Shown here piece after piece: positions 570 to 16,890 of a DNA stretch of 64,000 nucleotides. Made by a program: the position numbers and the translations under genes. Origin of the DNA: an uncultured Pseudomonadota bacterium (lineage in GTDB: Bacteria; Desulfobacterota; Syntrophorhabdia; Syntrophorhabdales; CAYQXL01); assembly GCA_964651435.1 (NCBI GenBank), contig CAZYVU010000004.1, forward strand, positions 49,660 through 113,659. Direction: 5' to 3'. Positions within the stretch are counted from its first letter, which is position 1, and each line of letters opens with the position of its first letter. A model generated the notes under the pieces. That model saw only the letters and a program-made list of their open reading frames with translations, was not told where the DNA came from and made no database searches.

Positions 570-1556
570 TTACCCCCCGATCCCGTTCATGGGCCGCACG
601 CACTTCCGGGGCTCCCATGGGGTTATCCCGTGTTCCTTTGGTTTGATACGGATAGCGGCCTCAATGAGGCGTAGCAGACCATCATCGTTCATGCCCCCGC
701 GGAGAGGGGTCTTCAGGTCGGTCTCTTCGTCGGAGAAGAGGCATCCCCGCAAACGGCCGCACGAGGTAAGGCGGAGTCTGTTGCATGTTCTGCAGAAATG
801 GTTGCTCAGCGCTCCAATGAAGCCGATTTCTCCTCTGGCCCCCTGAAGCCGGTAACGTCGCGCAGGACCATCAAGAAGGCGGTGGCTTAAGGGATTGACC
901 TCCCCCAGCGATCGAATGCGGTTAAGGATTTCGTCAACGGGAATAAACTTGTCCCGCCCCCAGCCGTTGCCGTTATCCTCACCAAAGGGCATCATCTCGA
1001 TAAAGCGCACGTGGTAGGGCTTGGCGAACGTCAGGCTTGCGAAGTCAACGATCTCGTCGTCATTCACCCCCCTCATGGCGACTACGTTTATCTTGATGGG
1101 ATCAAACCCCAGGGATTCTGCTTCGCCTATCCCTTCCCAGGCACGATCGAAAACATTCCGCCTGGTTATGCTGTGGAACCTGTCCCGCCTCAAGGTATCC
1201 ATGCTGACGTTGATGCGCCGCACGCCGCAGTCCCGCAGGCCACGGGCGAACTCTTTCAGGAGAACGCCGTTGGTGGTCAAGGTTATCTCCTCTATTTCGT
1301 CTATTTCCTGAAGCTTTTGGATGAAGTCGAGGATATCCCTTCTTACCAGGGGCTCCCCGCCCGTCAACCGAATCTTTCGAATACCCTCCCGGACGCATAG
1401 CTTGACAATATGAATCATTTCCTCGTAGGCAAGGACCTCACTGTGGGGCGTAAAGGGTACGCCCTCATCAGGCATGCAATAGATGCATCTGAGGTTACAT
1501 CGGTCGGTTACGGAGAGGCGCAAATAGTTGATCGCCCTGTTATGATTATCTACCAT
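570..1556 (-). CDS. moaA: GTP 3',8-cyclase MoaA (radical SAM, molybdopterin biosynthesis)
   Basis: N-terminal LSVTDRCNLRCIYCMP (CxxxCxxC), a GGEPL segment, and C-terminal second-cluster cysteines (CRTCNRLRLTSCGRLRGC). The 328 aa length fits. Confidence 0.9.
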   Translation of the reverse strand: MVDNHNRAINYLRLSVTDRCNLRCIYCMPDEGVPFTPHSEVLAYEEMIHIVKLCVREGIRKIRLTGGEPLVRRDILDFIQKLQEIDEIEEITLTTNGVLLKEFARGLRDCGVRRINVSMDTLRRDRFHSITRRNVFDRAWEGIGEAESLGFDPIKINVVAMRGVNDDEIVDFASLTFAKPYHVRFIEMMPFGEDNGNGWGRDKFIPVDEILNRIRSLGEVNPLSHRLLDGPARRYRLQGARGEIGFIGALSNHFCRTCNRLRLTSCGRLRGCLFSDEETDLKTPLRGGMNDDGLLRLIEAAIRIKPKEHGITPWEPRKCVRPMNGIGG

Positions 1557-1715: not shown

Positions 1716-2156
1716 TCAGCCGTCCCGCTTCTTTTGAACGATGTAGTTTTCGATGGCCTCCCGCAGGGTATTCGCGGCAAGCAGGGCGCAGTGCCGACTT
1801 TCCTCCGGAAGCCCGCCGATCGCGTCAAGGATCGTCTCGTTGGTGATCTCCCCGGCCTCTTCCAGGCTTTTCCCAAGGGCAAGGCCGGCTGCCAGCGACC
1901 CGCAGACGATGCTCGGCCCACAGCCGTCCGTTTGAAACGAGGCCTCACTCACCGTTCCGTTTTCGAATCTAAGGAATATTTCCATTGTGTCGCCGCAGGG
2001 ACCCGTAATCCGGCTATAACCATCGGGCCTCTCCATGGGCCGCATGTGCAAAGGGTTGCGCCATCGCTCAAAGGCCTTGTGTCCGTAGTCTCGAATTGTG
2101 TCATCGTTAATTTGATCCTGTAGCTCTTGCAAGAAATCATCAAGATTCTCCGACAT
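1716..2156 (-). CDS. IscU/NifU N-terminal-domain-like Fe-S scaffold protein
   Basis: Three scaffold cysteine contexts are present: GPCGD, DGCGPS and RHCALLA. Length is 146 aa. Confidence 0.7.
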   Translation of the reverse strand: MSENLDDFLQELQDQINDDTIRDYGHKAFERWRNPLHMRPMERPDGYSRITGPCGDTMEIFLRFENGTVSEASFQTDGCGPSIVCGSLAAGLALGKSLEEAGEITNETILDAIGGLPEESRHCALLAANTLREAIENYIVQKKRDG

Positions 2157-2203: not shown

Positions 2204-3067
2204 CTATGGCTTGGGCCCCAGGTTTGAAGCCAACACATTCGTTTCCGGAGCGAATCCTGCCTGCGATGCTACCACAGAGCATTTGACCCTGAAGAGGAAA
2301 ACAATTTTTTTCCTTGTATCACTTAAGGTTTCGTAGTTGCCTTGCCCTTTTGCTATTATGAGGTCCGCGTCGCTAAAGCACCTCCTGAATTCAGGACTGC
2401 ATTCGCTCACTATGGTGCCCGGCGCGTCAGAGCCGTTATCAATTACTTTTGCGATGTCATGGAGGCCTGCCGCATAGGCGTCAGCCATCGTGGCATCGTT
2501 GATGACCGGTTTTCCCCTGACGGCAACCGTCACCCTTTCCGCGGGAAGCTCCTCAACAAGAAGGCGGTCAAAGAATATCTCACCCGCATTATCGGTGAGG
2601 TACAGAATGTTGGTAGCCCCTTGCATCGCCAGGCGAAGGCCTTCGATATCTCCGCGAAATGGCCCTGAAAGGGCCTCGGCAACGCCGCGAAGGACGGCAT
2701 CCTCCGTCATTCCGCTCTTGGCGCCGCAGTCAATCACGTTTCCCGTTATTCCAAGATGGACGGCCGTCCTAAAACGGTCCCGGCTTTCATAAACCTTCTT
2801 TCTCAGTTCGGGCAGCAATCCCCGGGCAAGGCGGTTGAACCGCTCTTTAACTTCTCTGTATGGATCATCGTTTCCCGTCAGCTCCCGTATCCCGCGGTGC
2901 ATCCACTGGCCTGCAACGGGTGGCGGTTGATCGAAATCAAGTCCTGCCAGATAACGAAGTACATCGCGAAACACCTCTACGCGGACCGACGGATGGGCCG
3001 GGACATAGCGTATCGCTTCCAGCGCTTGCCTCGCCAAACAGGGAATACAATCGATCGTGGATTTCAC
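2204..3067 (-). CDS. DUF89 (ARMT1-like damage-control phosphatase) family protein
   Basis: The N-terminal CIPC motif and the overall pattern (..DNAGEIFFD.., ..AKGQGNYE..) resemble DUF89. GTG start lies downstream of AAGGAAGAAG. Confidence 0.65.
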   Translation of the reverse strand: MKSTIDCIPCLARQALEAIRYVPAHPSVRVEVFRDVLRYLAGLDFDQPPPVAGQWMHRGIRELTGNDDPYREVKERFNRLARGLLPELRKKVYESRDRFRTAVHLGITGNVIDCGAKSGMTEDAVLRGVAEALSGPFRGDIEGLRLAMQGATNILYLTDNAGEIFFDRLLVEELPAERVTVAVRGKPVINDATMADAYAAGLHDIAKVIDNGSDAPGTIVSECSPEFRRCFSDADLIIAKGQGNYETLSDTRKKIVFLFRVKCSVVASQAGFAPETNVLASNLGPKP

Positions 3068-3089: not shown

Positions 3090-3105
3090 AGCAATTAGCA
3101 TGCCA
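3090..3105 (-). promoter_or_regulatory. sigma-54 (-24/-12) promoter facing the DUF89 gene
   Basis: The reverse complement reads TGGCAT-GCTAA-TTGCT, with exact GG-N10-GC spacing. The -12 C is at 3091 and the GTG start at 3067, which predicts a leader of about 12 nt. Confidence 0.6.
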
Positions 3106-3211
3106 AAGCTTCTTTGCAGAACGATCACGAGACAACCTCATAACATGCCTGGCTATTCTTTCCCGGAACAACAACGTCGAGGTCCATATGCCCTCGGCTC
3201 TTCCACACATT

Positions 3212-3226
3212 CTTGCACTATGCAAG
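3212..3226. promoter_or_regulatory. inverted repeat CTTGCA-cta-TGCAAG, candidate enhancer (UAS) for the 3090-3105 promoter
   Basis: Perfect 6-bp arms with a 3-bp spacer. It lies about 110-120 bp upstream (minus-strand sense) of the -24 element, just after the activator gene stop. Confidence 0.35.
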
Positions 3227-3227
3227 G

Positions 3228-4625
3228 CTATCTGCGAAGCCCCCGCCCGTCGCGTGCGGGGGCTTCGATTTTCAGGTCTTTGATCTTCCTGTAAAGGGTG
3301 CTTGTGTCGAGGCCCAACTCTCGCGCCGTCACTGCCCTGTTGCCGCCGCAGCGTCGCAAGGTCTCTGCTATAAGGGTTTTCTCCATAGCCTTCAGGTTCA
3401 TGGGGCCTGCTCCTCCGGCCGAAGACGATACAGGGGGGCGTAATTCTGGGGGGAGGTGGTGAAGCTCTATGATCTCCCCACGGCACAGGACGAAAGCCTG
3501 CTCGATAATGTTCTCCAACTCCCGTATATTGCCGGGAAAGTCGTATTCCATAAGTTGCGTCATGACCTCAAAGGAAATCCCCGCAATGGTCTTTCCCTGG
3601 AGCCGGTTATATTTTCCCATGATGTGGTCGACCAGCAACGGTATATCTTCACGCCGCGCTTTGAGACTCGGCAGAACAAGGCGGATAACGCGAATCCGGT
3701 AGTACAAATCTTCCCGGAACCTTCCCTCCTCGACAAGCCGCAAAAGATTCCTGTTTGTGGCGGCCACAACACGCACATCTACCCTAACGGGCTCCACGGA
3801 TCCGAGCGGTTCTACCGTGCGCTCCTGCAGCACACGAAGCAAACGCACCTGAAGAGCCGGAGATATATCACCTATCTCATCAAGAAACAGCGTCCCACCT
3901 TCCGCAAGGACAAAGCGGCCCACCTTGTCCCGCTTGGCGTCCGTAAATGCCCCGGCTTTGTAGCCGAAAAACTCACTTTCCAGAAGGGTGTCGGGCAGTG
4001 CGGCACAGTTTACTGCAACGAACCGTTTCTTTCTGCGCGGCGAGAGGTTATGTATAGCCCGGGCGAAAAGCTCCTTGCCCGTACCGCTGGGACCCTCGAT
4101 CAGCACCGTGCTGCTGCTCTCGGCGATAGGCGGGAGCATCTCAAACAGACGTATCATCGAGGGACTCCTTCCCACGATGTCTTCAAAGGTGTGGCGGCTC
4201 TCCAATTCCTTTCGCAGCTCTTCTACCTGACTCAGGTCCTGAAAGGTTTCAACCCCGCCAATCACGTTGCCATCGTCACCTTTTAGGATTGCCGTCGAAA
4301 TGCGAACAGGCACACGCAATCCCTTATTGTTAACGATAAAAGCGGTGGCATTCACGACGGGCTTTGCCGTTTCGAAGGTACGTCTCAAGGCACAGTTCTT
4401 TTCGCATATATTCGCATGGAACACCGCGGAACATGGACGCCCCATCGCCTCTTCCCGAGAAACACCGGTAATGCGCTCTGCCGCACGGTTGAAGGAAGTA
4501 ATATGCCAATCGAGATTTATTGTGAAAACACCCTCGTTAATCGAGTCGAGAATAACCTCCCGCTCCTCCGCTCCCGTTCCGTAGCGGCTAAGGGCTCTAC
4601 CATTTTTCATATCCTTATCGTTCAT
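3228..4625 (-). CDS. sigma-54-dependent transcriptional activator (PAS sensor, AAA+ domain, Fis-type HTH; no receiver domain)
   Basis: PAS-like N-terminus (ILDSINEGVFTINLDWHITSFNRAAERITG). Walker A GPSGTGKE, GAFTGA-type loop (GAFTDA), Walker B LFLDEIG. C-terminal HTH ..AARELGLDTSTLYRKIK. Confidence 0.9.
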   Translation of the reverse strand: MNDKDMKNGRALSRYGTGAEEREVILDSINEGVFTINLDWHITSFNRAAERITGVSREEAMGRPCSAVFHANICEKNCALRRTFETAKPVVNATAFIVNNKGLRVPVRISTAILKGDDGNVIGGVETFQDLSQVEELRKELESRHTFEDIVGRSPSMIRLFEMLPPIAESSSTVLIEGPSGTGKELFARAIHNLSPRRKKRFVAVNCAALPDTLLESEFFGYKAGAFTDAKRDKVGRFVLAEGGTLFLDEIGDISPALQVRLLRVLQERTVEPLGSVEPVRVDVRVVAATNRNLLRLVEEGRFREDLYYRIRVIRLVLPSLKARREDIPLLVDHIMGKYNRLQGKTIAGISFEVMTQLMEYDFPGNIRELENIIEQAFVLCRGEIIELHHLPPELRPPVSSSAGGAGPMNLKAMEKTLIAETLRRCGGNRAVTARELGLDTSTLYRKIKDLKIEAPARDGRGLRR

Positions 4626-4660
4626 ATTGCAATAGTATGGTACCTATAGTATTGCAATAT
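4624..4660. promoter_or_regulatory. 37-bp near-palindrome containing two ATTGCAAT boxes, candidate activator-binding site (UAS/operator)
   Basis: ATATTGCAATAGTAT-GGTACCT-ATAGTATTGCAATAT, with 15 of 18 symmetric pairs matching. It starts inside the activator start codon and is centred about 100 bp upstream of the 4740-4755 promoter. Confidence 0.45.
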
Positions 4661-4739
4661 GCGGCACAAATGTCAATGTAACCCTGCCCACCGCCGTGCA
4701 ACATATTGGTATCGCTGTTGTTTATATGTCTTTTCTTCA

Positions 4740-4755
4740 CGGCACAAAAGTTGCG
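4740..4755 (+). promoter_or_regulatory. sigma-54 (-24/-12) promoter facing the NifX-like/DUF5320 gene set
   Basis: CGGCAC-AAAAG-TTGCG, with invariant GG and GC at the correct spacing. ATG 4771 is 16 nt after the -12 C, so the leader would be very short. Confidence 0.5.
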
Positions 4756-4770
4756 TTGCATGTCGATATC

Positions 4771-5187
4771 ATGGTGATAGCAATAGCAAACTTCCAGGGT
4801 TCCGTATCGCCGGTCTTTGACGTGTCCGATAAGCTCTCTCTCGTAGAGGTCGTCGGCGGAAAGGAAGTGCAGCGAAAAGACGTGCTATTGATGGAAAGAG
4901 ACCCATTCCTGAGGGCTAAGGAAATGACCGCTATCAGCGTCGAGGTGCTGCTCTGCGGGGCCGTCTCGTACGCCATGGAGACGGCCCTGATTACCGCCGG
5001 TATCAGCGTTGTAGGATTTCTGTGCGGCGGTCTTGAGATGATACTTGGCGCTTTTCTGAAGGAGGGACTGACGGACAGCCGCTTTCTCATGCCCGGATGC
5101 GTCGGGGGCAGGCGACGACGTCGGTTTCGCTGTAGTCACGGAAGACAGGAAGCCCCTATGCGGGGCGGGCCAAACAAAAGGAGGTGA
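4771..5187 (+). CDS. NifB/NifX (dinitrogenase FeMo-cofactor-binding domain)-like protein with Arg-rich tail
   Basis: From the internal ATG the protein reads MVIAIANFQGSVSPVFD..LLCGAVSYAMETALITAGISVVGF..ILGAFLKEGL, the alternating pattern of NifX-like carriers. The tail is GGRRRRRFRC. Confidence 0.6.
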   Translation: MVIAIANFQGSVSPVFDVSDKLSLVEVVGGKEVQRKDVLLMERDPFLRAKEMTAISVEVLLCGAVSYAMETALITAGISVVGFLCGGLEMILGAFLKEGLTDSRFLMPGCVGGRRRRRFRCSHGRQEAPMRGGPNKRR

Positions 5188-5192
5188 GGAAC

Positions 5193-5597
5193 ATGCCAGG
5201 TGGAGATGGAACAGGGCCTCGTGGATTTGGACCCATGACCGGACGGGCGGCAGGATTCTGTACAGGTTTTCCCGTTTCCGGGTATGCAAATTTCGCTCAG
5301 GGAAGAGGGTTTCGTACCTGGGGCGGCCCTGGTGGAGCCGGCGGCCGTGGCTTCAGAAAATGGTTCCGCAGAACCGGACTGACAGGGCGGCAAAGAGCCG
5401 GAGGCTTTATGCCGGCCTGGGACAATCCCTTTACTTACGGTGCGCCCCAGCACACCCCTGCAGCGCCCGCTGTAACAAGGGAACAGGAGTTGGCTGCACT
5501 GAAGGCTCAGGCGGAATACCTGGAAGACGCCCTCGATGGCGTCCGCAGGCAGCTCAAGGACCTGGAGGCCCAGGGAATGGCGCCTCAGGCAGGTTGA
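5193..5597 (+). CDS. DUF5320 family protein
   Basis: MPGGDGTGPRGFGPMTGRAAGFCTG N-terminus, a Gly/Arg-rich middle, and a C-terminal coiled-coil-like REQELAALKAQAEYLEDALDGVRRQLKDLE. AGGAGG lies 7 nt upstream. Confidence 0.7.
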   Translation: MPGGDGTGPRGFGPMTGRAAGFCTGFPVSGYANFAQGRGFRTWGGPGGAGGRGFRKWFRRTGLTGRQRAGGFMPAWDNPFTYGAPQHTPAAPAVTREQELAALKAQAEYLEDALDGVRRQLKDLEAQGMAPQAG

Positions 5598-5606
5598 CGT
5601 CGAATA

Positions 5607-5640
5607 GGGGGTAACGGTTGCGCAGGTAACCGTTACCCCC
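5607..5640 (+). other. perfect 13-bp stem-loop between DUF5320 and the next gene (attenuator, terminator or RNA-stability element)
   Basis: GGGGGTAACGGTT-gcgcaggt-AACCGTTACCCCC. No U-tract follows. Confidence 0.4.
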
Positions 5641-5678
5641 GTGCCCCGGCTTCTGAGACATGATCGAGGAGGATTGTT

Positions 5679-6323
5679 ATGCGTATTGCCGTTACAGCGG
5701 AAGGACCATCTCTTGACGTCGCAATTGATCAGAGGTTTGGGCGATGCCCTTTCTTTCTCATCGTCAATACCGGGGACCTCACTTTTGAGGCTATCCCGAA
5801 CGGAAGCGCTTCTCAGCGGGGAGGTGCGGGTATCCAGGCCGCTCAAATGATCGTCGGCAAAGGGGTGACGCACGTCTTCACAGGTGCCTGCGGGCCCAAT
5901 GCTTACCAGGTCCTCGCGGCGGCCGGGGTCCAGGTTATAGTCGGCTGCACCGGCACGGTACAAGACGTCATCAGACAATGTCGGGAGGGAAGGTTTGTGG
6001 CAGCCGCAGAGCCCAATGTAAGGGACCACTACGGCGTCGGCCAACCCTTGTCGGGTCAGGCAGGCACCCCTATGGGAATCCCCGGCGGGTTTACGACAGG
6101 CATGGGGATGGGCAGAGGAATGGGCCGCGGCAAGGGCAGAGGAATGGGGGTGGTCCGCGGTATCGGTACAGACCCGAACGTTAGTGTCGGGCAAGCACCG
6201 GGAGCGCCGGTCCAGCCCAAGAATGCTCAGCAAGAGCTGGAGTTGCTAAAGAAGCAGATGCAGGACATTAAGAACCGCATCGACGAGCTCGAGCAAACTG
6301 CGCCCGCTAAGAATCGGGGTTGA
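5679..6323 (+). CDS. NifB/NifX-like domain fused to a DUF5320-like Gly/Arg-rich coiled-coil tail
   Basis: N-terminal half MRIAVTAEG..IDQRFGRCPFFLIV..GVTHVFTGACGPNAYQVLAAAGVQV matches NifX-like domains. C-terminal half is GMGMGRGMGRGKGRGMG..QQELELLKKQMQDIKNRIDELE. Confidence 0.7.
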   Translation: MRIAVTAEGPSLDVAIDQRFGRCPFFLIVNTGDLTFEAIPNGSASQRGGAGIQAAQMIVGKGVTHVFTGACGPNAYQVLAAAGVQVIVGCTGTVQDVIRQCREGRFVAAAEPNVRDHYGVGQPLSGQAGTPMGIPGGFTTGMGMGRGMGRGKGRGMGVVRGIGTDPNVSVGQAPGAPVQPKNAQQELELLKKQMQDIKNRIDELEQTAPAKNRG

Positions 6324-6392
6324 GTGATGCGAATTGCCGGCTTTCACATCCCTGAAGGCTTGGGGGCTTAGGCTCCATTTCACCGTGAGGGA

Positions 6393-7415
6393 ATGGAAAT
6401 GGGTATTTTTGCCATAATAGTTGATTATCTCCAGCGAGGCTCCGGCGGTATCCTTGCAACGGTGATACAACGAACCGGTTCGGCACCGCGCGATGTGGGG
6501 GCGAAAATGTTCATCGCTGCCGATGGCACCATGTTTGGGACTGTAGGAGGCGGCCGTCTTGAGTCCGACGCCTACAACAAGGCGCTGGAAATAATGAACA
6601 AAGGGATTACGGCCCTGCTGAGCGTCAATATGGAAGCAATGAATGTAGAGGATGCAGACATGCTCTGCGGCGGCAACGTGTACGTTCTCTTGGAGCCGGT
6701 AACAACAGGCAGTCTTGAGCTCTATAGCGCCATAAGGCATTGCCGGGAAAGAAGGGAGGCAGGTGTGCTCCTGACAAGGTTCGGCGACCATGGGTTTGCC
6801 AAAACCTTGCTGTGCGAAAACGGAACCACGGTTGGTGATTTCCCTGACTACGGGACGGGCAAAACCGACTTCTTTTCCTTCGACTTGCCCGCACTGGCAG
6901 ACTCCGGGGACCTCTTTGTTGAACCAATCCGCGCTATCAGTCCCCTTTACATTTTTGGTGCAGGCCACATATCGCAGCATCTGTCCCGAATGGCCAAAGC
7001 CGTCGGTTTTTACGTGACCGTCATCGACGACAGGAGGGAATTTGCCAATACGGAGAGGTTCAGCGATACCGACAGCATTATCGTGGGGGAATTTGCGGAC
7101 ACCTTTTGTGCTCTCGAGTTCACGGGCCACGAATACGTGGTCATCTGTACGAGAAGTCATGAGTACGATGCCCTTGTCCTGGAAAACGCACTGAAGAAAG
7201 AAACAAAATATATCGGAATGATTGGGAGCGCGCGAAAGGTGCGAATCATCATGGACCGCATGCACGCAAAAGGCTACGACCAGAGGATCACGGCGGGGGT
7301 GCGCGCCCCGATAGGGATCCCCATCAATGCGGAAACCCCCCAGGAAATAGCGGTAAGTATTGTAGCGCAACTGATACAAGTGAAAAACGCGCAGTCTCGC
7401 GGCAGCGGGACTTAA
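6393..7415 (+). CDS. XdhC/CoxI-family cofactor-insertion accessory protein
   Basis: N-terminal XdhC-type segment (ATVIQRTGSAPRDVGAKMFI..GTVGGGRLE) plus a Rossmann-like half (LYIFGAGHISQHLSRMAKAVGFYVTVIDDR..IGMIGS). Confidence 0.8.
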   Translation: MEMGIFAIIVDYLQRGSGGILATVIQRTGSAPRDVGAKMFIAADGTMFGTVGGGRLESDAYNKALEIMNKGITALLSVNMEAMNVEDADMLCGGNVYVLLEPVTTGSLELYSAIRHCRERREAGVLLTRFGDHGFAKTLLCENGTTVGDFPDYGTGKTDFFSFDLPALADSGDLFVEPIRAISPLYIFGAGHISQHLSRMAKAVGFYVTVIDDRREFANTERFSDTDSIIVGEFADTFCALEFTGHEYVVICTRSHEYDALVLENALKKETKYIGMIGSARKVRIIMDRMHAKGYDQRITAGVRAPIGIPINAETPQEIAVSIVAQLIQVKNAQSRGSGT

Positions 7416-7427
7416 AAGAATTTAGTG

Positions 7428-7478
7428 TTAGGGCGTGGGTTTCTCGGTTTCCGTCGGTGCCGAGGCTATGCCCTAACG
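7428..7478 (+). other. nested stem-loop abutting the ribosome-binding site of the radical SAM gene
   Basis: Outer stem GTTAGGGC/GCCCTAAC and inner stem CTCGG/CCGAG. GGGGTGA and ATG 7490 follow directly. Confidence 0.3.
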
Positions 7479-7489
7479 GGGTGATCCTT

Positions 7490-8263
7490 ATGAAGAGAAG
7501 CTTCATGTATATTTACGGGCCCGTTTCATCCTGGAGAATGGGCAGCTCTCTTGGTATCGATCTCTTGTCGCAGCCGGAAAAAATCTGCTCTTTTGACTGC
7601 ACCTATTGCCAGCTCGGAAGGACCTGCAACGGTGAGACAAAGAGGAAGATCTGCGTTCCTGTTGAAGACATGTTGGAGGAAATTCGGTCGTTACCTGAGA
7701 TTTCCGTCGACTGCTTTACCTTTTCCGGAAGAGGAGAACCAACACTGGCAGCAAACCTTGGCGACGCGATCAGGGCCCTCAGGCAGGCCAGGTCCGAGCG
7801 AATCGCCGTCATTACAAACTCATCGCTATTGCAACAGGATGATGTCCAAAATGACCTCTTGCAGGCCGACCTCGTTATTGCCAAACTCGATGCGCCGTCG
7901 CAAGATGTATTTGAGGCCATCAACAGGCCTTGTTCCGGTTGCGACTTCCCGGGCCTTCTTGCGGCCCTTGTAGATTTCAGGGGCCGTTTTTCCGGCACGC
8001 TTGCTTTACAAATCATGTTTACGGCACAGAATAGGGGCTACGCGTCCGAGATAGCGCACATTGCCCGGATCATCGCGCCGGACGAGGTGCACATCAATAC
8101 ACCGCTAAGACCTTGCGCCGTCCACCCCCTCGGAAGAGAGGAGCTCTCTCGTATCACGGCCTTCTTCGCCGGGCTTAATGCCCTTTCCGTCTACGAAAGC
8201 AGCAAGAAATTCGTCGAGCCCATGAGCGACGACGACACACTACGAAGAAGGGGAAAGGTTTAG
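7490..8263 (+). CDS. radical SAM protein (COG0731/Tyw1-like bacterial family, function unknown)
   Basis: YGPVSSWRMGSSLGIDL followed by CSFDCTYCQLG (CxxxCxxC), then GRGEPTL. Start moved to the ATG preceded by GGGGTGA. Confidence 0.75.
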   Translation: MKRSFMYIYGPVSSWRMGSSLGIDLLSQPEKICSFDCTYCQLGRTCNGETKRKICVPVEDMLEEIRSLPEISVDCFTFSGRGEPTLAANLGDAIRALRQARSERIAVITNSSLLQQDDVQNDLLQADLVIAKLDAPSQDVFEAINRPCSGCDFPGLLAALVDFRGRFSGTLALQIMFTAQNRGYASEIAHIARIIAPDEVHINTPLRPCAVHPLGREELSRITAFFAGLNALSVYESSKKFVEPMSDDDTLRRRGKV

Positions 8264-8265
8264 GG

Positions 8266-8976
8266 ATGGAGATTAAGATCCTCTTCGACAACAGAAGGCT
8301 GAATCGCACGTTCATAGCAGGGTGGGGATTGTCATATCTTGTTGACGACCGGATCCTCTTTGACACAGGCGAGAGCGCAGGACCCCTTTTCTACAACATG
8401 GACCGCATGGGCGTCAGTATCGAGCAGATCCAGTCAGTCGTCATTTCCCATGAACATTTTGACCATACCGGCGGCCTCTGGAACATCCTTAAGGAAAGGC
8501 CGGGCATCAATGTCTATGTATGTCCGGATTTCAGCGCGCCATTCAAGGAAGAGGCGGCATCGTATACCTGTAACGTAATAGAGGCTCACCATATGACCCC
8601 GATTGCCGAGCGCATACAGGCAACGGGTCAGTTACGCAGCGGCACCCATTCGGACGGTATCGCAGAGCAGTCCTTGGTACTTTGTACGGAGCTGGGCCTG
8701 ACAATGCTGACGGGCTGCGCACATGTCGGCATAGTAGACATGGTGGAGCAGGTAACAATGGTGACGGGAAAGAAATCCTATCTTGTCATGGGCGGTTTTC
8801 ACCTCCTCGGCGAACCCGAGACCATGGTACAGGCTGTCGGCAGAAGACTGCACGAGCTTGGCGTACAATACATCGGGCCGGCCCACTGCACCGGCACCGA
8901 ACCAATGCGAATCCTAAAGGGGTCGTACGGACAACGTTTCATCGATGTCCTCGTAGGCGAGACAATAAAGGTTTGA
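8266..8976 (+). CDS. MBL-fold metallo-hydrolase superfamily protein (COG1237-like)
   Basis: ISHEHFDHTGG metal motif and later GCAHVG and GGFHL motifs. Starts 2 nt after the radical SAM stop. Confidence 0.7.
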   Translation: MEIKILFDNRRLNRTFIAGWGLSYLVDDRILFDTGESAGPLFYNMDRMGVSIEQIQSVVISHEHFDHTGGLWNILKERPGINVYVCPDFSAPFKEEAASYTCNVIEAHHMTPIAERIQATGQLRSGTHSDGIAEQSLVLCTELGLTMLTGCAHVGIVDMVEQVTMVTGKKSYLVMGGFHLLGEPETMVQAVGRRLHELGVQYIGPAHCTGTEPMRILKGSYGQRFIDVLVGETIKV

Positions 8977-9028
8977 TGCCGCTAAAAGTGTTCTTTGCAT
9001 CGTTGCGTGGTCCAGGCTAAGGGGTGCC

Positions 9029-9778
9029 ATGGCTGTTGGGACATTACCGCTGATTATCGGGGCCACCCTGGTGGGGAGTGTGGCCACCCTGGTGGGGGCA
9101 TCTTTCGTGCTCCTCTGCTCCAAGGGGAGAAGCCGGATCTTTATTCCTTTTCTTGTAAGTTATGCCACCGGAACGCTTCTCGGGGCAGCCTTTTTGGGCA
9201 TGATACCGAAGGCACTGAAAGTTTCCTCAACAACCACAGTCTCCGCTACCATACTGGCCGGCACTCTCCTCTTCTTCCTGCTTGAGAAGTCCGTCATCTG
9301 GCGCCACTGCCACGAAGACAACTGCGACATTCACACGAGGGCAGGCACTCTCATTATTTTTGGCGATGCTTTTCACAACTTTGTTGACGGCATCGTTATC
9401 GCCGTGGCCTTTATGGCCGACAGGTCATTTGGGGCCGCGACCACCGTAGCCGTTCTCGCCCATGAAATTCCGCAGGAAATGGGAGATTTTGCGATCCTCA
9501 TTGAAAGCGGCTACCCTCGGGCGAAGGCATTTCTTTACAACTTCCTATCCCAGGCAACCTCTCTGCTGGGTGCGGTCGCCGCCTACTTCTATCTCCAGGC
9601 CGCCGAGGCCGCTATTCCATACGTCCTCTCCATGTCAGCGGCAAGCTTCATCTACATCGCCCTGGCGGACCTCATCCCCGGGCTCCATCGAACAATAGAA
9701 CTGAAAAACAGTTTTATTCAGTTAGTGCTGCTCCTGTCGGGAATCGGGACGATAGCCCTTTTCGTTGCCTCTCCTTAA
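9029..9778 (+). CDS. ZIP-family divalent metal permease (ZupT-like)
   Basis: Multi-pass membrane protein with the signature HEIPQEMGDFAIL and HNFVDG. Confidence 0.8.
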   Translation: MAVGTLPLIIGATLVGSVATLVGASFVLLCSKGRSRIFIPFLVSYATGTLLGAAFLGMIPKALKVSSTTTVSATILAGTLLFFLLEKSVIWRHCHEDNCDIHTRAGTLIIFGDAFHNFVDGIVIAVAFMADRSFGAATTVAVLAHEIPQEMGDFAILIESGYPRAKAFLYNFLSQATSLLGAVAAYFYLQAAEAAIPYVLSMSAASFIYIALADLIPGLHRTIELKNSFIQLVLLLSGIGTIALFVASP

Positions 9779-9830: not shown

Positions 9831-10526
9831 TTACGGTTCTTTGAGCCATGAATAGTAACTCCCCAACAGATAAAGGGCCGCCAGGGGGTTGTGTCCCGTG
9901 ACGCGGTCCTTGACGGCAAGCACCGTGGAGGGGGCCTTCGCATACTTGAAGAAGAGCGAGTCGTGGCCCACGCAGAGACCGAGAAGGACGTTGAAATCCG
10001 TCTCCTCTTCGTTGGCGATCATAGCCTGAAAAATAGGGTTGCACATGGACTCGTGCCCCCCCCTGAACACCTTTTCGTCATCGGTCAGCCCTATCTCTTC
10101 CTTTGCCACGCATCCGGCCTTGCACATCACAGAAACGACGTCAAAACCCTTCTGCTCAAAAAAGCCGCAGGTCAACCGTGCCTCCGCGACAAGGCCGGCG
10201 CAGAAGATAAGCCCGAGGCGCTCGTAACCCATCCGTCGGGCAAACTCGCATATCTCCAGAATGCGCGGCTTTGTCGGATGGATGACGTATGGTCTCCGCT
10301 CCCTGCCGGCGTAGCACTCCCCTTCCTGAATGGAGGCCTGCCGGGCAAACTCGCCGTTTTCCAAGGATCTGTACTCCTGCCGGGCCTTCTCAAGCAGGCC
10401 TCTGAAGGACGCCGTGGGGCATCCCGCCGCAGGAGAGCCTCCGGGCTTCATGCAGGCACGCTCGCGAAACTCGACGCTGCATTCTGCGCACTGAGCCTTG
10501 ATCTTCTGTGATTTTCGGGCCGTCAT
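9831..10526 (-). CDS. DUF1847 family Cys-rich (metal-binding) protein
   Basis: N-terminal CAECS..C..C and the conserved LLGLCVGHDSLFFKY block. Confidence 0.6.
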   Translation of the reverse strand: MTARKSQKIKAQCAECSVEFRERACMKPGGSPAAGCPTASFRGLLEKARQEYRSLENGEFARQASIQEGECYAGRERRPYVIHPTKPRILEICEFARRMGYERLGLIFCAGLVAEARLTCGFFEQKGFDVVSVMCKAGCVAKEEIGLTDDEKVFRGGHESMCNPIFQAMIANEEETDFNVLLGLCVGHDSLFFKYAKAPSTVLAVKDRVTGHNPLAALYLLGSYYSWLKEP

Positions 10527-10876
10527 TGCGTGACCTCTTTCTCCTTTACAACCTCTGTCTTGAGAAACGTGAGCAGGTCCTGCAGCACAGGCAGGACGTC
10601 GCTTCTGAACCGCCCTGCGACAAGGACCTTCATGATGTCATCGCCAACGTTGAGCTCCCCCTCGTTAAGCCAAACCCGCACCTCGACTACTCCTTCTCTT
10701 GCTTTCGCCGCCGTTATTGCCTCGGCAAGCTTGTCGCGATCGTACGAAAGCAACATCCCCCGAACCGCTGAGCCCGTTTTTGCCGTGGCCCTCACAACCC
10801 CGTTATGAACGAGGATCATGCCCAGCTCCCTGGGATCAGCGCTCTTCTTCACCTCTCCAATCCATTCATCAAACAT
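10523..10876 (-). CDS. MoaE-like (molybdopterin synthase large-subunit fold) protein
   Basis: By-eye alignment to MoaE: HNGVVR vs TGKVR, NEGELNVGDDIMKVLVAGRFRSD vs IGELWPGDEIVFVGVTSAHRSS, TFLKTEVVKEKE vs DYLKTRAPFWKRE. ATGA overlap with the DUF1847 gene. Confidence 0.5.
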   Translation of the reverse strand: MFDEWIGEVKKSADPRELGMILVHNGVVRATAKTGSAVRGMLLSYDRDKLAEAITAAKAREGVVEVRVWLNEGELNVGDDIMKVLVAGRFRSDVLPVLQDLLTFLKTEVVKEKEVTQ

Positions 10877-10902
10877 CCTTCACCTCCTTCTTGGCCCTAT
10901 TA

Positions 10903-12258
10903 TTAGAGGAGGGCCATCAAGTCTCCGATATCCTCCACGCGCTCCAGCGACAGCACCCTTTCGACGATCAAGGGTGCTTTGGCTCTTGCGTCCGCCAGTC
11001 CGCTGTAATCCACACATTTGAAGAACTTCTGCACGCACTCCTCGACGGTCAACGGGTTTTCCGGGCTACCCCTCATGTGCTCAACGGTTTTCTCAATCGC
11101 CGCGCCCTTATAGCGCACGACGAGGCGCGCCCTGTTCATGTCCCGCTCCGGAATCGCCGGATCGGCCACCACGCGCACCTTTCCGATGAGACCGTCGCCG
11201 GGCGCCTGCCTTACCCGGTCCTCTTCGAAGTCCTCGAGGCGCACATCGCCCCGCTGCAGAGCCGCAGCAACCGTGTAAGGTATGCTGAACTGGGCATCCA
11301 CCTGGGGGTTTTCCCGAACGCTAAAAGGCCTTCCCACCATGTTTTCCGCCATGGAGGAAACGTAGGCCGCCACCTCCTCGATCTCCGACGGGTCCGGCCC
11401 GTGCTCCCGAAGGATGGTCAGTGCTGCGTCTATTGAGGCATGCGTCATCCTGCACGAAGGGTAAGGCTTCATGCTGAGGCCCATGCCCTCGTAACGGGTG
11501 CCCAGGTCTTCTGCCGCCCGTCGGGCGTCGAAGTCGCCCTGCTCGTAGAGGTTGAAAAATCCGTATTGACCTTCGAAGGTGTCACGTGCGCCCGTAATGC
11601 CGGCACGGGCCAGGTAGGCCGACACCACTCCGGCCTTGGCCGAGAAGGCAGGCTGCATACGCTTGACCAATCCGCCGTCAACCAGACACTGGGCGTTGCC
11701 TGCCGTCTGGCTGTAAACAATGCCCAGGGCCTGCCGTATGCCTCCGCCGCCGAGCCTCATCATCTTTGCCGCGGCAACTGCGGCGCCGAAACTCCCACAG
11801 GTAGCCGTCCTGATCCAGGACAGCGGCCGCCTCGTACCGAGGCCCAACCTGCAGACACTGTCGACGCCCAGGACAAGGGCACAGATGAGCTCCCTTCCGC
11901 TGGCCGGCCCAGCCGCCTCGGCTACGGCCAGCGCCGCCGGCAGCACCGACACATGGGCATGCAATGCGCTCTCGTCGAGCGTGTCGTCAAAGTCGAGGGC
12001 ATGCATCATCGTGCTGTTTGCAAAGGCCGCCCACGGCGACGGCACCCTGCCTCCCCCCGCCAGCACCGTCGATTCAGGGCTGCCGCCCCACTCTTGTACG
12101 AGACGCACCACCTCGCGGCAGCCCGGCGCATGTGCGCCCGCAAGGGCCACGCCCAGCGAGTCAAGAACGAACAGTTTGGCCCTCTCCACCACCGATGCGG
12201 GAAGGTCCTCATACTTGACGCGGGCCGCATGGTCCGCCATAGCCTCCAAGACATTCAT
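10903..12258 (-). CDS. MmgE/PrpD family protein (2-methylcitrate dehydratase-like)
   Basis: N-terminus ..YEDLPASVVERAKLFVLDSLGVALAG and the overall PrpD-type pattern. 451 aa. Confidence 0.85.
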   Translation of the reverse strand: MNVLEAMADHAARVKYEDLPASVVERAKLFVLDSLGVALAGAHAPGCREVVRLVQEWGGSPESTVLAGGGRVPSPWAAFANSTMMHALDFDDTLDESALHAHVSVLPAALAVAEAAGPASGRELICALVLGVDSVCRLGLGTRRPLSWIRTATCGSFGAAVAAAKMMRLGGGGIRQALGIVYSQTAGNAQCLVDGGLVKRMQPAFSAKAGVVSAYLARAGITGARDTFEGQYGFFNLYEQGDFDARRAAEDLGTRYEGMGLSMKPYPSCRMTHASIDAALTILREHGPDPSEIEEVAAYVSSMAENMVGRPFSVRENPQVDAQFSIPYTVAAALQRGDVRLEDFEEDRVRQAPGDGLIGKVRVVADPAIPERDMNRARLVVRYKGAAIEKTVEHMRGSPENPLTVEECVQKFFKCVDYSGLADARAKAPLIVERVLSLERVEDIGDLMALL

Positions 12259-12297
12259 ACCGCCTCCCTATGCTCCCGCCGGCGCACCGCTATCTGC

Positions 12298-13320
12298 CTA
12301 CCGGGGAATCTTCTTTCCCTTCTCTTTGTAATACTTTATCGCTCCGGGATGAAAGGGGAAAGGTGATCCATCGACGGCAATGTCAAGAGTGAGGTCGTTT
12401 GCAACTTTATGCATCGATACGAGCTCCGGCTTGTGATCAAAGAGGGTCTTCAAGACGTCGTAGACAAACTTGTCGTCCATCTTCTCGTGAGTAACGAGGA
12501 AGTTGCCCGCACAAACGGTAGCCACGCCATAGTCCACCCCCTTATACGTGTTTGGTGGACAGGTGGTTTTGAAGTATATGGGACCGTACTTGGCCACCAT
12601 TTTTGGAAGCACCTCAGCAGAGCTCAGCATTCTGATTTTCATGCCAGGGCTTGCCGCCACATCCATGACGGCCGCCGTAGGTATTCCGCCAACCCAAAAG
12701 AAGGCGTCGATCTTCCCGTCTTTGAGGGCCCCCGCCGATTCTGCCACGCTGAGACGGTCCCTTTTTACGTCCTTCTGTATATCCAGACCGTAGGCCTCAA
12801 GAATTCTGGTGGCCACAATCTCCGTTGCACTTCCCGGCGCACCGACGGAAACCCGCTTGCCCTTGAGGTCCTTAACCGACTGTATGCCGTTGCCGTCCAC
12901 CGTGACGATATGGGTAACGGAGGAATAAAGCCCGGCGATATTCCGCATGGGCACCTTCGCCTTGAACACCCCCTTGCCCATGTAAGCATCATAACCCACG
13001 TCACCAAGCATGATGGCCAGATCGGCCTTCCCGGCCCCAAGGAGCTTGGCATTGTCTACGGCCGCCGCCGTCACCTCTGCCGTCGCTTCAACTCCCGGAA
13101 TGTGCTTGGAAATGACGGCTGCGATAGCCCCGCTATAGGGATACCAAACGCCGCCTGTACCCCCGGCTGCGATGGAAATTCTCCGCACTTTGTCCGCTGA
13201 GATTGCCCCGGGGACTAAGGCCACGCAAACGATAACAAGGAGCGTTACAAAGCCCACAACCGCACAGGTCAAGCCCTTTCCGTGTTCGGACCCGCCCTTT
13301 GATGACGATTTTCTGTTCAT
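12298..13320 (-). CDS. TAXI-family TRAP-type solute-binding protein (no membrane partner nearby)
   Basis: Signal-anchor N-terminus, then AAGGTGGVWYPYSGAIAAVISKHIPGVEATAEVTAAAVDNAKLL. Start set at ATG 13320, preceded by GGAGG. Confidence 0.85.
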   Translation of the reverse strand: MNRKSSSKGGSEHGKGLTCAVVGFVTLLVIVCVALVPGAISADKVRRISIAAGGTGGVWYPYSGAIAAVISKHIPGVEATAEVTAAAVDNAKLLGAGKADLAIMLGDVGYDAYMGKGVFKAKVPMRNIAGLYSSVTHIVTVDGNGIQSVKDLKGKRVSVGAPGSATEIVATRILEAYGLDIQKDVKRDRLSVAESAGALKDGKIDAFFWVGGIPTAAVMDVAASPGMKIRMLSSAEVLPKMVAKYGPIYFKTTCPPNTYKGVDYGVATVCAGNFLVTHEKMDDKFVYDVLKTLFDHKPELVSMHKVANDLTLDIAVDGSPFPFHPGAIKYYKEKGKKIPR

Positions 13321-13349
13321 GACTACCTCCAATAACGTTATTGTCTGTC

Positions 13350-14582
13350 TCACAGAATCGCCCGTCGGAGAATCTGTGCAATGTCCATAACCTCAATTCT
13401 GTTGTTTACCTGAAGGTCCCTGACGGCGCCGTCAAGCATGGTAAAACACCAGGGACATGCCGTGGCGATCACCTCGGCGCCCGCAGCGAGGGCCTCGGCA
13501 ACCCTGACCTTCGAAAGCCTCCTCTCCTCCTCGACCTCCGCATACATTCGCCCTCCCCCTCCCCCGCAGCAGAGGGCGTCGTCCATGTTCGACTTCATCT
13601 CTACGAGCTTGAGGCCTGGGACAGATTTGAGGAGTTCTCTCGGCGGCCCATAGATCTTGTTGTGTTTTCCGAGGTAACAGGGGTCGTGGTAGGCCACGAC
13701 CCGAGGAAAGGTTCCCGCCGGTTCCCATCCATTCTCCTGTATACGCTTGAAGAGAAACTCCGTATAATGCTCTACGTGCCAGTCATCGCCGGCTTGCCGA
13801 TACTCGTGAAGAAAGGTGTTGTAACAGTGGGGGGAAAGCGTGACGACCCTTTTCACGCCTGCGGCTTTGAACCGGTCCACGTTCCGGACGGCGAGCTCAT
13901 CGAAGATAGCGGTATCGCCCATCCTGAGCGCCGGATCACCGCAGCAAATCTCGTCCGGCAGCACACCAAAGTCCACGTTCAAGCGCGTAAGCACATCGAC
14001 GAGGCTCCGCCCCACCTCCGCGAGCAGCGGATCGTAGGCGACGGTGCAACCGACGTAGAGCATCGTCCCGGTCCCATCGGCCGGCAGGCGCTTCACCTGC
14101 ATGTCCCCGAGCCAGCCCAGCCGCTCTTCGGGCTTGCCACCGTAAGGGTTCCCGTAGGCATAGATGTGCCAGAGGGGCTTTCGCTGTTGCGGCAAAGGGC
14201 CGATCATCATCTCGCGGAGGATTCTCCGGCCCTGTTCGATAGCCTCTCGGATCTTTATCCCTGTTGCCTTGGACTTGCAGCGGATGACGCAACCGTTGCA
14301 GGTTGTGCAGGCATAGACGATGTCGCGCAGGATCTCCCGCTCCTTGCCGGACATGAGGTTCCAACGCAGGGCATAGCTGAGGGACTGCAGGATGCCCGAT
14401 GGCGTTTGACTCATAAACCCCCGGGTGGATTGAAAAATGGGACATATGGTAAAGCAGTAGTTGCAATTCCGGCAACGGCTCGCCGCGTCAAGGATCGCCT
14501 CCCGGGCGGCCTCGACAACATCCGGGCCCGTCTTTTCGTCATCTCCCTCAGGACGGCCGTACTCTCGGTCCTTTTCTTCCAC
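13350..14582 (-). CDS. (Fe-S)-binding protein, GlcF/HdrD-like (two 4Fe-4S motifs plus CCG domains)
   Basis: CRNCNYCFTICP and CTTCNGCVIRC ferredoxin motifs. Two CCG-type segments (..HDPCYLG.., ..DALCCGGGGG..). Confidence 0.8.
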   Translation of the reverse strand: MEEKDREYGRPEGDDEKTGPDVVEAAREAILDAASRCRNCNYCFTICPIFQSTRGFMSQTPSGILQSLSYALRWNLMSGKEREILRDIVYACTTCNGCVIRCKSKATGIKIREAIEQGRRILREMMIGPLPQQRKPLWHIYAYGNPYGGKPEERLGWLGDMQVKRLPADGTGTMLYVGCTVAYDPLLAEVGRSLVDVLTRLNVDFGVLPDEICCGDPALRMGDTAIFDELAVRNVDRFKAAGVKRVVTLSPHCYNTFLHEYRQAGDDWHVEHYTEFLFKRIQENGWEPAGTFPRVVAYHDPCYLGKHNKIYGPPRELLKSVPGLKLVEMKSNMDDALCCGGGGGRMYAEVEEERRLSKVRVAEALAAGAEVIATACPWCFTMLDGAVRDLQVNNRIEVMDIAQILRRAIL

Positions 14583-14628
14583 CTATCTTGCCTCCAACGT
14601 CACGGCGACCCGCGGGGGTTTCCGGCCT

Positions 14629-16204: not shown

Positions 16205-16501
16205 ATGTCAAGACCAAAGAAATGCAGATGTGTCGATTGTAGCCCTCACGTATTTTATTTTAAACCCAAGGGGATTCCCTTGGTCAATCTCTTTGAGATT
16301 TCCCTTGAGATAGACGAGCTTGAGGCATTGAGGCTGGCCGACTACGAGGGCCTGTACCACGAAGAGGCATCGAAGAGAATGAACATATCAAGGGCTACTT
16401 TTGGCCGCGTTTTGTGCAGCGCCCGCCATAAGGTCGTGGAGGCCATACTGGAGGGCAAGGCCTTGAAGATTGAAAACCAACAAGCTGGAGGTCACATATG
16501 A
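16205..16501 (+). CDS. DUF134 (UPF0251) family putative DNA-binding protein
   Basis: MSRPKKCRCV..FKPKGIPL N-terminus and a sigma-70 region-4-like HTH (EEASKRMNISRATFGRVL). Confidence 0.8.
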   Translation: MSRPKKCRCVDCSPHVFYFKPKGIPLVNLFEISLEIDELEALRLADYEGLYHEEASKRMNISRATFGRVLCSARHKVVEAILEGKALKIENQQAGGHI

Positions 16502-16872
16502 AGGTCTGTTTTGCAGTACAGAAGGATGAGGGGCTGGAAAGCACCGTCTACGGTCATTTCGGTTCAGCTCCGGCTTTTATCGTCGTTGATACGGAAGCGG
16601 AGACGGCGGCTACGGTAGCCAACAGGGACCGGAACCACGCACACGGGGCCTGCAACCCCATGGCCGCCATCGGCGGGCAGCGGGTCGATGCCGTGGTTGT
16701 CGGCGGCATCGGGGCCGGTGCGCTCATGAGGCTCAACGCAGAGGGCATCAAGGTCTTCCGCGCTGCAGGGCCGTCGGTCCGGGCAAACCTATCCTTGATC
16801 AAAGATAATATGCTCCCCGAAATGACGGCGCAGAATACCTGCGCTGGCCACCAGGGCGGGTGCGGCCACTAA
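16498..16872 (+). CDS. NifB/NifX-like (FeMo-cofactor-binding domain) protein
   Basis: MKVCFAV..VYGHFGSAPAFIVVD..VDAVVVGGIGAGALMRLNAEGIKVF. ATGA overlap with the DUF134 gene. Confidence 0.8.
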   Translation: MKVCFAVQKDEGLESTVYGHFGSAPAFIVVDTEAETAATVANRDRNHAHGACNPMAAIGGQRVDAVVVGGIGAGALMRLNAEGIKVFRAAGPSVRANLSLIKDNMLPEMTAQNTCAGHQGGCGH

Positions 16873-16890
16873 CGCGAGAAGAGGTGACAT

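Follow-up and report, generated by a model that had tools for sequence, protein, structure and literature searches.

What do seven tightly packed genes of metallocofactor type do in a genome when no enzyme that would use such a cofactor is encoded beside them? The question is raised by a stretch of 64,000 nucleotides from an uncultured bacterium of the Syntrophorhabdales (Desulfobacterota; GenBank assembly GCA_964651435.1, contig CAZYVU010000004.1, positions 49,660 to 113,659 of the forward strand), here called the window. Its genes 1 to 7 are co-directional (4771-9778, plus strand), with intergenic gaps of -4 to 89 bp, and lie beside a divergent gene for a PAS/sigma-54 activator. The original prediction, made from the sequence and its translated open reading frames (ORFs), described this layout and took the whole for an undescribed, regulated module that handles a metal-containing cofactor. 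The ORF map and Pfam and NCBIfam profile searches of the window ORFs, from which our family calls were made, bore out the layout (Table 1), and the general inference of a regulated cofactor module is plausible.

The module is nevertheless a relative of a described system. Gene 3 encodes a homologue of the orange protein (ORP) of Desulfovibrio and the activator falls in the family of the regulator OrpR; therefore the locus is not an orphan. We consider it probable that the locus represents the ORP system of anaerobes in a lineage-specific form that lacks the ATPases and is under an OrpR-family activator.

An ORP homologue and an OrpR-family activator

The ORP complex and orp operons of Desulfovibrio vulgaris Hildenborough (DVU2103-DVU2109) were reportedly described by Fievet et al. 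in 2011. When ORP was isolated, it carried a non-covalently bound Mo-Cu-S cluster. The ORP of D. vulgaris, Orp8, is part of a complex of five proteins whose other members are the MinD-type [4Fe-4S] ATPases Orp3 and Orp4, Orp5, and the Mrp::NifX fusion Orp9, also called MrpORP, which binds and transfers iron-sulfur (Fe-S) clusters, as does its NifX-like domain (PMC6345978). OrpR of D. vulgaris is a PAS/sigma-54 activator that is encoded between two sigma-54 operons and senses redox state via a [4Fe-4S] cluster; Cys52, Cys61 and Cys65 are needed for sensing and are the proposed cluster ligands, and position 54, close by, is a conserved Asp or Glu (PMC8359166). OrpR (DVU2106) has also been listed with GAFTDA instead of GAFTGA (PMC4641369).

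Residues 2-113 of gene 3 have as their best PDB chain 2WFB, the ORP of D. gigas (E 3e-20, 43% identity over 112 aa), and by this match gene 3 is an ORP homologue. It differs from ORP in carrying a DUF5320-like tail behind a Gly/Met-rich linker. A NifX-like domain followed by a long GGGMGGGR repeat tail, which recalls this linker, is encoded in another locus (L083, 4338-5177).

The PAS domain of the activator carries the cysteine triad C65-x8-C74-x3-C78 and its AAA+ domain the motif GAFTDA, and both are also present in the orthologues from three Desulfobacterota metagenome-assembled genomes (MAGs; L005, L006 and L014). The triad was kept in 118/120 database homologues of the PAS domain and GAFTDA in 22 of the 26 homologues long enough to judge. 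Two of the PAS homologues (P0310 and P0318), in unrelated long contigs, adjoin genes for NifX-like, MinD-[4Fe-4S], DUF5320 and metallo-beta-lactamase (MBL)-fold proteins. We filed the activator in the OrpR family because of the triad, GAFTDA and the position of homologues beside NifX- and MinD-type genes, an assignment by motifs and gene context. The activator shares with OrpR the PAS-AAA+-helix-turn-helix architecture, the C-x8-C-x3-C spacing of the cysteines and GAFTDA as its form of the sigma-54 contact motif; each of two target promoters is likewise preceded by a palindromic site, and the activator gene has a putative sigma-70-type promoter of its own.

Two further observations concern activators in related loci. 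OrpR-like activators in L088 (8001-9423) and L089 (8001-9243) were each called as two ORFs, one with the PAS domain and one with the AAA+ and helix-turn-helix domains, probably through long-read frameshift errors. A second, weakly activator-like ORF directly follows the MBL gene in L006 (11515-12639, E 4e-10) and L014 (11454-12611, E 6e-8); it is absent from the window, where ZIP holds that position.

Table 1 Features of the locus and its surroundings in the 64,000-nucleotide window
Feature	Position	Strand	Evidence and remarks
MoaA (GTP 3',8-cyclase)	570-1556	-	TIGR02666 385 bits vs cut-off 284; Pfam Radical_SAM and Mob_synth_C
IscU/NifU_N scaffold paralogue, divergent	1716-2156	-	PF01592 84 bits; NifU_clost 99 bits vs cut-off 188
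DUF89/ARMT1-like metal-dependent phosphatase (by family)	2204-3067	-	PF01937 222 bits; first gene of second predicted sigma-54 operon
Predicted sigma-54 promoter before DUF89	3105-3090	-	TGGCATGCTAATTGCT
Candidate upstream activator site 2	3213-3225	.	Palindrome TTGCATAGTGCAA; ~115 bp upstream of DUF89 promoter, just past activator stop codon
OrpR-family enhancer-binding protein (activator)	3228-4625	-	Pfam PAS_9, Sigma54_activat and HTH_8 (Fis-type helix-turn-helix)
Candidate upstream activator site 1	4626-4664	.	ATTGCAAT-N17-ATTGCAAT; ~84 bp upstream of gene 1 (NifX1) promoter
Putative sigma-70-type promoter of the activator	4676-4648	-	10/12 matches; overlaps upstream site 1
Predicted sigma-54 promoter before gene 1	4740-4755	+	CGGCACAAAAGTTGCG; -12 GC 16 nt ahead of ATG
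Gene 1, divergent NifX/MTH1175-like domain protein	4771-5187	+	hhalign; invariant C62, C85, C110; basic tail
Gene 2, DUF5320	5184-5597	+	PF17253 73 bits vs cut-off 27
Gene 3, ORP homologue fused to DUF5320-like tail	5679-6323	+	Nitro_FeMo-Co 78 bits, DUF5320 30 bits; Gly/Met-rich linker
Gene 4, XdhC family	6399-7415	+	XdhC_CoxI 74 bits and XdhC_C Rossmann domain 145 bits; 338 aa
Gene 5, small single-domain radical SAM enzyme	7505-8263	+	PF04055 only; 252 aa, identical to P0001
Gene 6, MBL-fold protein, COG1237 type	8266-8976	+	Lactamase_B 40 bits; intact HEHFDH read in sequence
Gene 7, ZIP-family metal permease	9029-9778	+	PF02535 127 bits, above cut-off; ZupT 62 bits vs cut-off 252
DUF1847 and MoaE-like gene, convergent on ZIP	9831-10876	-	PF08901 and PF02391
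DUF134 regulator, second NifX-like gene, Zn_ribbon_8	16280-17124	+	Trio typical of ORP-like clusters

Predicted promoters and a common upstream site

A second sigma-54 promoter had been proposed in front of DUF89, an IscU-like gene and possibly moaA, and the proposal held: the promoter motif was matched at 3105-3090 on the minus strand and TIGR02666 identified MoaA, the last gene on this side, 159 bp after IscU. The pattern TGGCAY-N5-TTGCT before DUF89 lies in the same place in L005, L006 and L014, and GG-N10-GC is kept in them 12-13 nt ahead of the gene 1 start codon, so that both promoters are retained although the surrounding intergenic DNA has diverged. A palindromic site ~85-115 bp upstream of each promoter is likewise kept in the three genomes, in the forms TATTGCATAkTGCA after the activator stop codon and TATTGCAnAATGC beside the activator start; the conserved part of site 1 is its right half, TATTGCAATATGC (4650-4664). 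Across the four genomes with this gene order, the upstream motif common to both operons is TTGCA-N3-TGCA.

The pattern GGYAY-N5-TTGC was found 4 times in the window vs 2.2 expected, which is not above chance, and the promoter calls therefore rest on position and conservation. Its other two matches, at 21019-21032(-) inside a radical SAM/SPASM ORF and at 35333-35346(-) antisense in another ORF, are probably due to chance. The motif TTGCANNNTGCAA gave two matches in the window at no more than one mismatch, again the chance level, and no further regulon members were found there. In all four genomes only 12-16 nt separate the -12 GC from the start codon of gene 1, so a sigma-54 transcript would be leaderless or nearly so. 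As a separate observation, no Shine-Dalgarno sequence is visible ahead of gene 1 in the window (4740-4773) or in the equivalent segments of L005, L006 and L014.

The gene set is thus real and conserved and, as far as promoter position and conservation can tell, sigma-54 controlled. The two predicted promoters and their common upstream site, kept in all three relatives, also argue for the earlier view that the module is regulated as a unit.

Conservation of the gene set in other genomes

We scanned one genome per GTDB species with an alignment of the radical S-adenosylmethionine (SAM) enzyme and retained 80 loci, the best-scoring relatives of one family (~32 from Omnitrophota, 14 from Planctomycetia, 10 from Desulfobacterota and 6 from Chloroflexota). 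These were searched with the window proteins, all of their ORFs were clustered, and loci with 5 kb or more of sequence to either side were treated as well flanked (n = 32). The exact order IscU-DUF89-activator / gene 1-DUF5320-ORP-XdhC-radical SAM-MBL was found in the three Desulfobacterota MAGs L005, L006 and L014, whose radical SAM proteins are 61-64% identical to that of the window. Co-occurrence with the radical SAM gene in the 32 well-flanked loci was 62% for MinD-Fer4 ([4Fe-4S] ATPases), 59% for NifX-like, 53% for MBL, 50% for DUF5320, 47% for DUF89, 41% for Mrp, 38% for Fur, 34% for IscU, 9% for XdhC and 9% (3/32) for ZIP, percentages that describe the close neighbourhood of the family and not an unbiased census of genomes, because the loci are its best-scoring relatives. 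The core genes are therefore co-conserved in other genomes, as the original prediction would have it, and chance clustering of the set was rejected on the synteny and co-occurrence data.

Gene order differed by lineage. In Omnitrophota and Planctomycetia it typically ran Fur - DUF5320 - NifX - NifX - (methyltransferase) - MinD-Fer4 x2 - (disulfide oxidoreductase) - Mrp, and continued as radical SAM - DUF89 - MBL - (CDF::NifX) - thioredoxin. With Chloroflexi included, the order common to these loci is Fur/DUF134-DUF5320-NifX-NifX-MinD-MinD-Mrp-radical SAM-DUF89-MBL. The order in Desulfobacterota was DUF134::NifX - MinD-Fer4 x2 - Mrp::NifX - MBL - XdhC - IscU - radical SAM. DUF89 lies immediately downstream of the radical SAM gene in 19 loci of other phyla; since the two genes belong to separate operons of one regulon in the window, this adjacency is independent support for a functional link between them.

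ZIP and MoaA, which had been included in the predicted gene set, are local additions specific to the window. Both are absent from the three syntenic genomes, and ZIP was near the radical SAM gene in only 5/81 loci. Transporters recur in these clusters, but their type (ZIP, CDF or FeoAB) differs between lineages. CDF transporters fused to or followed by a NifX-like domain were seen in L011 (12617-13909) and also in L013, L016, L021 and L086, usually preceded by a small Gly/Arg-rich zinc-ribbon protein.

Carrier-type proteins

The family calls of the original prediction for DUF5320, the fusion, XdhC, radical SAM, MBL and ZIP were all reproduced by profile searches; gene 1 had no Pfam match and was recovered as NifX-like by hhalign. 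A profile of five gene 1 orthologues matched NifX-like domains with 95.7% probability (E 1e-8). Its PDB profile matches were weak and were to MTH1175/NifX-like entries only (1RDU, 1T3V and 1O13, E 0.003-0.008). On the strength of these two kinds of match, the NifX-like label is acceptable for this divergent protein. The three cysteines of gene 1 are invariant in the orthologue alignment; its single-sequence structure model (mean predicted local distance difference test, pLDDT, 59) was one long helix and unusable. BLASTP showed no significant similarity of either gene 1 or gene 2 to gene 3, and profile methods were therefore needed. Gene 2 has, in orthologue comparison, a Gly/Arg-rich N-terminus with one conserved Cys and a coiled-coil-like C-terminal segment. 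Matches in the window to NF041136, a model of Mrp::NifX type, were weak and came from the NifX-like parts only.

Enzymes, chaperone and scaffold

The start of the radical SAM gene was set at 7505 from the identical database protein P0001. The protein has one CX3CX2C motif (C28/C32/C35), invariant in the family alignment, and one further conserved Cys, C204, and by these searches it is a member of a large uncharacterised family. Its best NCBIfam scores were 30-35 bits, to W-cofactor maturase, MoaA and viperin, under cut-offs of 284-380 (180 for prokaryotic viperin), and a PDB sequence search found no relative. In an AlphaFold 2 model (pLDDT 76) the nearest folds were viperin, then PFL-AE, MiaB and NifB, with template modelling (TM) scores of ~0.6; the matches as a whole (viperin, PFL-AE, MiaB, NifB, LipA, TYW1) are generic, at TM 0.5-0.6, and allow no subfamily to be assigned. 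The COG0731 label stems from Joint Genome Institute names of homologues. TYW1 (2YX0) ranks 43rd among the fold matches, and the Pfam/NCBIfam scan showed no TYW1 second cluster site, Mob_synth_C, SPASM or RRE (recognition element) domain. The nearest families and folds weakly hint at a nucleotide-type substrate.

For the MBL-fold protein, the closest PDB matches were 7DCK, 2P4Z and 3H3E (E 2e-34 to 3e-24), which carry only generic or 'uncharacterised' names. The idea of a pterin product goes back to a presumed link between the COG1237 family and the methanopterin enzyme MJ0301. The IscU paralogue keeps the three scaffold cysteines, in GPCGD, GCGP and HCA.

The XdhC start was set at 6399 from the database protein P0121 (338 aa). 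The protein scored under two equivalog cut-offs, with 311 bits vs 350 for NF045664 and 146 vs 162 for TIGR02964. Three homologues of ~51% identity (P0185, P0208 and P0170), all in multi-megabase contigs, lie inside ORP-like clusters, with no molybdoenzyme beside any of them, a result that speaks against taking XdhC as a pointer to a nearby or dedicated Mo-hydroxylase client. In large Desulfobacterota genomes, XdhC-containing ORP-like clusters also recurrently hold DUF364/DUF4213 ('putative heavy-metal chelation'), rhodanese and hexapeptide-repeat genes (7355-8171 and 10709-11479 in L085 and L086; 3209-3940 in L089).

When the large ORFs of the whole 64 kb were scanned with Pfam, neither a nitrogenase, a xanthine dehydrogenase, a CODH or an AOR nor any other Mo/W enzyme turned up, in agreement with the original prediction; the large ORFs in the rest of the window are housekeeping and polysaccharide genes only. 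A nearby client enzyme was rejected as an explanation of the locus after these scans.

Proposed function

The best-supported statement about the locus is one of identity, that it appears to be an OrpR-controlled ORP variant without ATPases. Our best reading of its mechanism, drawn from homologues and context, would be that of a system under redox control whose proteins carry and tailor a metal-sulfur cofactor. By analogy with OrpR, the activator would hold a redox-sensitive [4Fe-4S] cluster on its PAS triad and be active only at low redox potential. It would bind the conserved TTGCA-N3-TGCA sites that lie at either end of the activator gene and open the two sigma-54 promoters. One operon would encode the carriers, of which one is Cys-rich and NifX-like and the other an ORP domain, and the DUF5320 coiled-coil segments may join or oligomerise them. 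Given that ORP is known with a Mo-Cu-S cluster and related domains with Fe-S clusters, the carriers may hold a labile metal-sulfur species, for which the IscU paralogue of the same regulon would be the cluster source. The radical SAM enzyme, DUF89 phosphatase and MBL-fold protein may make or tailor the cargo or its small-molecule ligand, and this ligand could be nucleotide- or pterin-derived. XdhC would then act as holder or insertase for the product and not as the chaperone of an adjacent molybdoenzyme, and the ZIP and MoaA add-ons may supply a divalent metal and a pterin precursor.

Several points weigh against this reading. Neither Orp3/Orp4-type MinD-[4Fe-4S] ATPases (phmmer with MinD-Fer4 references) nor an Mrp::NifX protein of Orp9 type was found within the 64 kb, so that the window is without one of the parts that define the ORP complex. 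The activator has Ala67 (4423-4425, minus strand) two residues after the first Cys, where 114/118 homologues have Asp or Glu, the residues conserved in OrpR, and where the activators of L005, L006 and L014 have Glu. The upstream motif also differs, TTGCA-N3-TGCA in the window vs GGGCGYRTTTTGCGCCC for OrpR. The roles given to the radical SAM, DUF89, MBL and DUF5320 proteins are drawn from context, with structural matches that are generic (TM ~0.6), and the co-occurrence figures come from a family's close neighbourhood. The function of ORP is itself debated, with cell division, Mo-Cu binding and Fe-S delivery each having been proposed (PMC8359166, PMC6345978). The position occupied by Ala67 in the window is a candidate for the fourth cluster ligand.

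Alternative explanations

The dedicated IscU paralogue with all three scaffold cysteines would also suit a specialised system of Fe-S assembly, delivery or repair for strict anaerobes, in which IscU builds clusters, the NifX-like and ORP proteins carry them and the accessory enzymes handle damaged clusters or metabolites, the whole being switched on only under reducing conditions. The annotation of DUF89 as a damage-control phosphatase, the binding and transfer of Fe-S clusters by MrpORP and its NifX-like domain (PMC6345978), and the recurrence of Fur, thioredoxin, pyridine-nucleotide disulfide oxidoreductase, FeoAB and rhodanese in related clusters are all consistent with such a system. It leaves the radical SAM, MBL and XdhC proteins unexplained, however; a housekeeping NifS/NifU pair is encoded nearby, outside the regulon, and the cluster with which ORP was isolated was Mo-Cu-S and not Fe-S (PMC6345978). 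We regard this explanation as unlikely. Dedicated maturation of a Mo/W cofactor, which we think quite improbable, would have MoaA, the MoaE-like protein, the radical SAM enzyme and the MBL-fold protein build or modify a pterin, the NifX-like proteins merely park the cofactor, and XdhC insert it into a distant client of AOR or xanthine-oxidase type. XdhC does reach 311 bits on NF045664, the 'XdhC family aldehyde oxidoreductase maturation factor', but it falls short of the 350 bits set for the family, its homologues are found in ORP-like clusters with no Mo/W enzyme nearby, and it accompanies only 9% of the radical SAM loci. MoaA is a true equivalog, yet it is missing from the three syntenic relatives, and the MoaE-like gene next door encodes a short protein (117 aa) that scores 40 bits vs a cut-off of 215. 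That the nearest families of the radical SAM enzyme include W-cofactor maturase and MoaA, and that ORP binds a Mo-containing cluster (PMC6345978), favour this explanation; no client enzyme within 64 kb does not.

In modification of ribosomally synthesised peptides (RiPP-like), the small Gly-rich, Cys-containing DUF5320 proteins would be substrates of the radical SAM enzyme. In L050 and L052 the radical SAM gene has DUF5320 genes as direct neighbours, in 9 loci it directly follows a 69-aa Cys-rich ORF, and the Gly-rich segment of DUF5320 has its one conserved Cys. Against these observations stand a radical SAM protein with neither SPASM nor RRE domain and only one extra conserved Cys, the conserved coiled-coil-like C-terminus of DUF5320 and its fusion to ORP, the absence of a conserved protease or exporter from the loci, and, in the window, three genes between DUF5320 and the radical SAM gene; we judge the idea highly improbable. 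More far-reaching, and in our estimate rather doubtful, is the proposal that ORP-like clusters encode the complete pathway for a new cofactor, a metal-sulfur cluster with an organic ligand, perhaps derived from a nucleotide or a pterin. The ligand would be the product of the radical SAM, DUF89 and MBL proteins, assembly would take place on IscU and on NifX-like and ORP carriers organised by DUF5320, and XdhC would hand the product on. If this were true, the window would hold a minimal, redox-gated version of the pathway, without ATPases and easier to reconstitute.

Comparison with known systems

The favoured reading, an ORP variant under OrpR-type control, agrees with the D. vulgaris system (DVU2103-DVU2109) in its ORP homologue and PF02579-type carrier domains, in two operons with predicted sigma-54 promoters that flank a cognate PAS activator, and in the restriction of both to anaerobes. 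In related loci, Orp3/4-like ATPases and Orp9-like Mrp::NifX proteins are encoded beside the same radical SAM, MBL, XdhC and IscU families. The window differs in having no Orp3/4/9-type ATPases in 64 kb, in its DUF5320-tailed ORP domain, in operons that lie at either end of the activator gene and not back to back, and in operons that add DUF5320, XdhC, radical SAM, MBL, ZIP, DUF89, IscU and MoaA. None of these eight added families is named as a component of the ORP complex or the orp operons in the accessible ORP/OrpR literature.

The coding of a radical SAM enzyme together with NifX-like (PF02579) domains recalls NifB/NifX/NafY, and NifB is among the fold neighbours of the model. The window nevertheless holds no nifHDK/EN/B, and its radical SAM protein is not NifB by sequence and has none of the additional cysteines that ligate the auxiliary clusters of NifB. 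With the molybdenum cofactor chaperones of XdhC/PaoD type (PMC2997495), gene 4 shares both domains, and NF045664 is its best NCBIfam match; it differs in scoring below the equivalog cut-off and in lying in ORP-like clusters; in no locus examined was it next to a molybdoenzyme.

Because a system of the ORP/OrpR kind is already known, the locus is not categorically new. What appears to be new is this architecture, the ORP::DUF5320 fusion and the absence of ATPases, and also the consistency with which the radical SAM, DUF89, MBL and XdhC families accompany ORP-type genes; the accessible literature offered nothing relevant on DUF5320 or on these gene associations. It likewise yielded nothing of use on 7DCK, on MJ0301/COG1237 or on XdhC in AOR maturation. 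Four families regularly accompany ORP-type genes in Desulfobacterota, Omnitrophota, Planctomycetota and Chloroflexota, namely this specific radical SAM family, DUF89, the COG1237-type MBL family and, in Desulfobacterota, the XdhC subfamily, and in the lineage of the window a single OrpR-type regulon takes in all four together with the ORP homologue. The ORP problem, so far one of a vague 'metal-binding complex', thereby gains a short list of candidate enzymes, and DUF5320 gains a genomic context. The compact set of ~10 genes could be co-expressed to find the cargo. The XdhC subfamily should not be read as a marker of a nearby molybdoenzyme.

Other genes in the window

The DUF1847 gene or the MoaE-like gene that converge on ZIP recur near radical SAM or XdhC genes in L004, L007, L026 and L087. 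With genes for FAD-oxidase, CCG/Fe-S, NMT1-type binding and PrpD/MmgE proteins they look like one operon (9831-16047, minus strand), divergent from the DUF134, NifX-like and Zn_ribbon_8 trio, and the CCG and FAD-oxidase genes are found as a pair beside the cluster in L005, L006, L014, L081 and L083 as well. The housekeeping NifS/NifU pair lies at 17150-18892(-), its NifU just above the NifU_clost cut-off. A radical SAM/SPASM protein encoded at 20633-21787(-) is related to TIGR04311 ('putative metalloenzyme maturase') and to W-cofactor maturase, below the cut-off for both, and this part of the genome is dense in Fe-S and cofactor genes.

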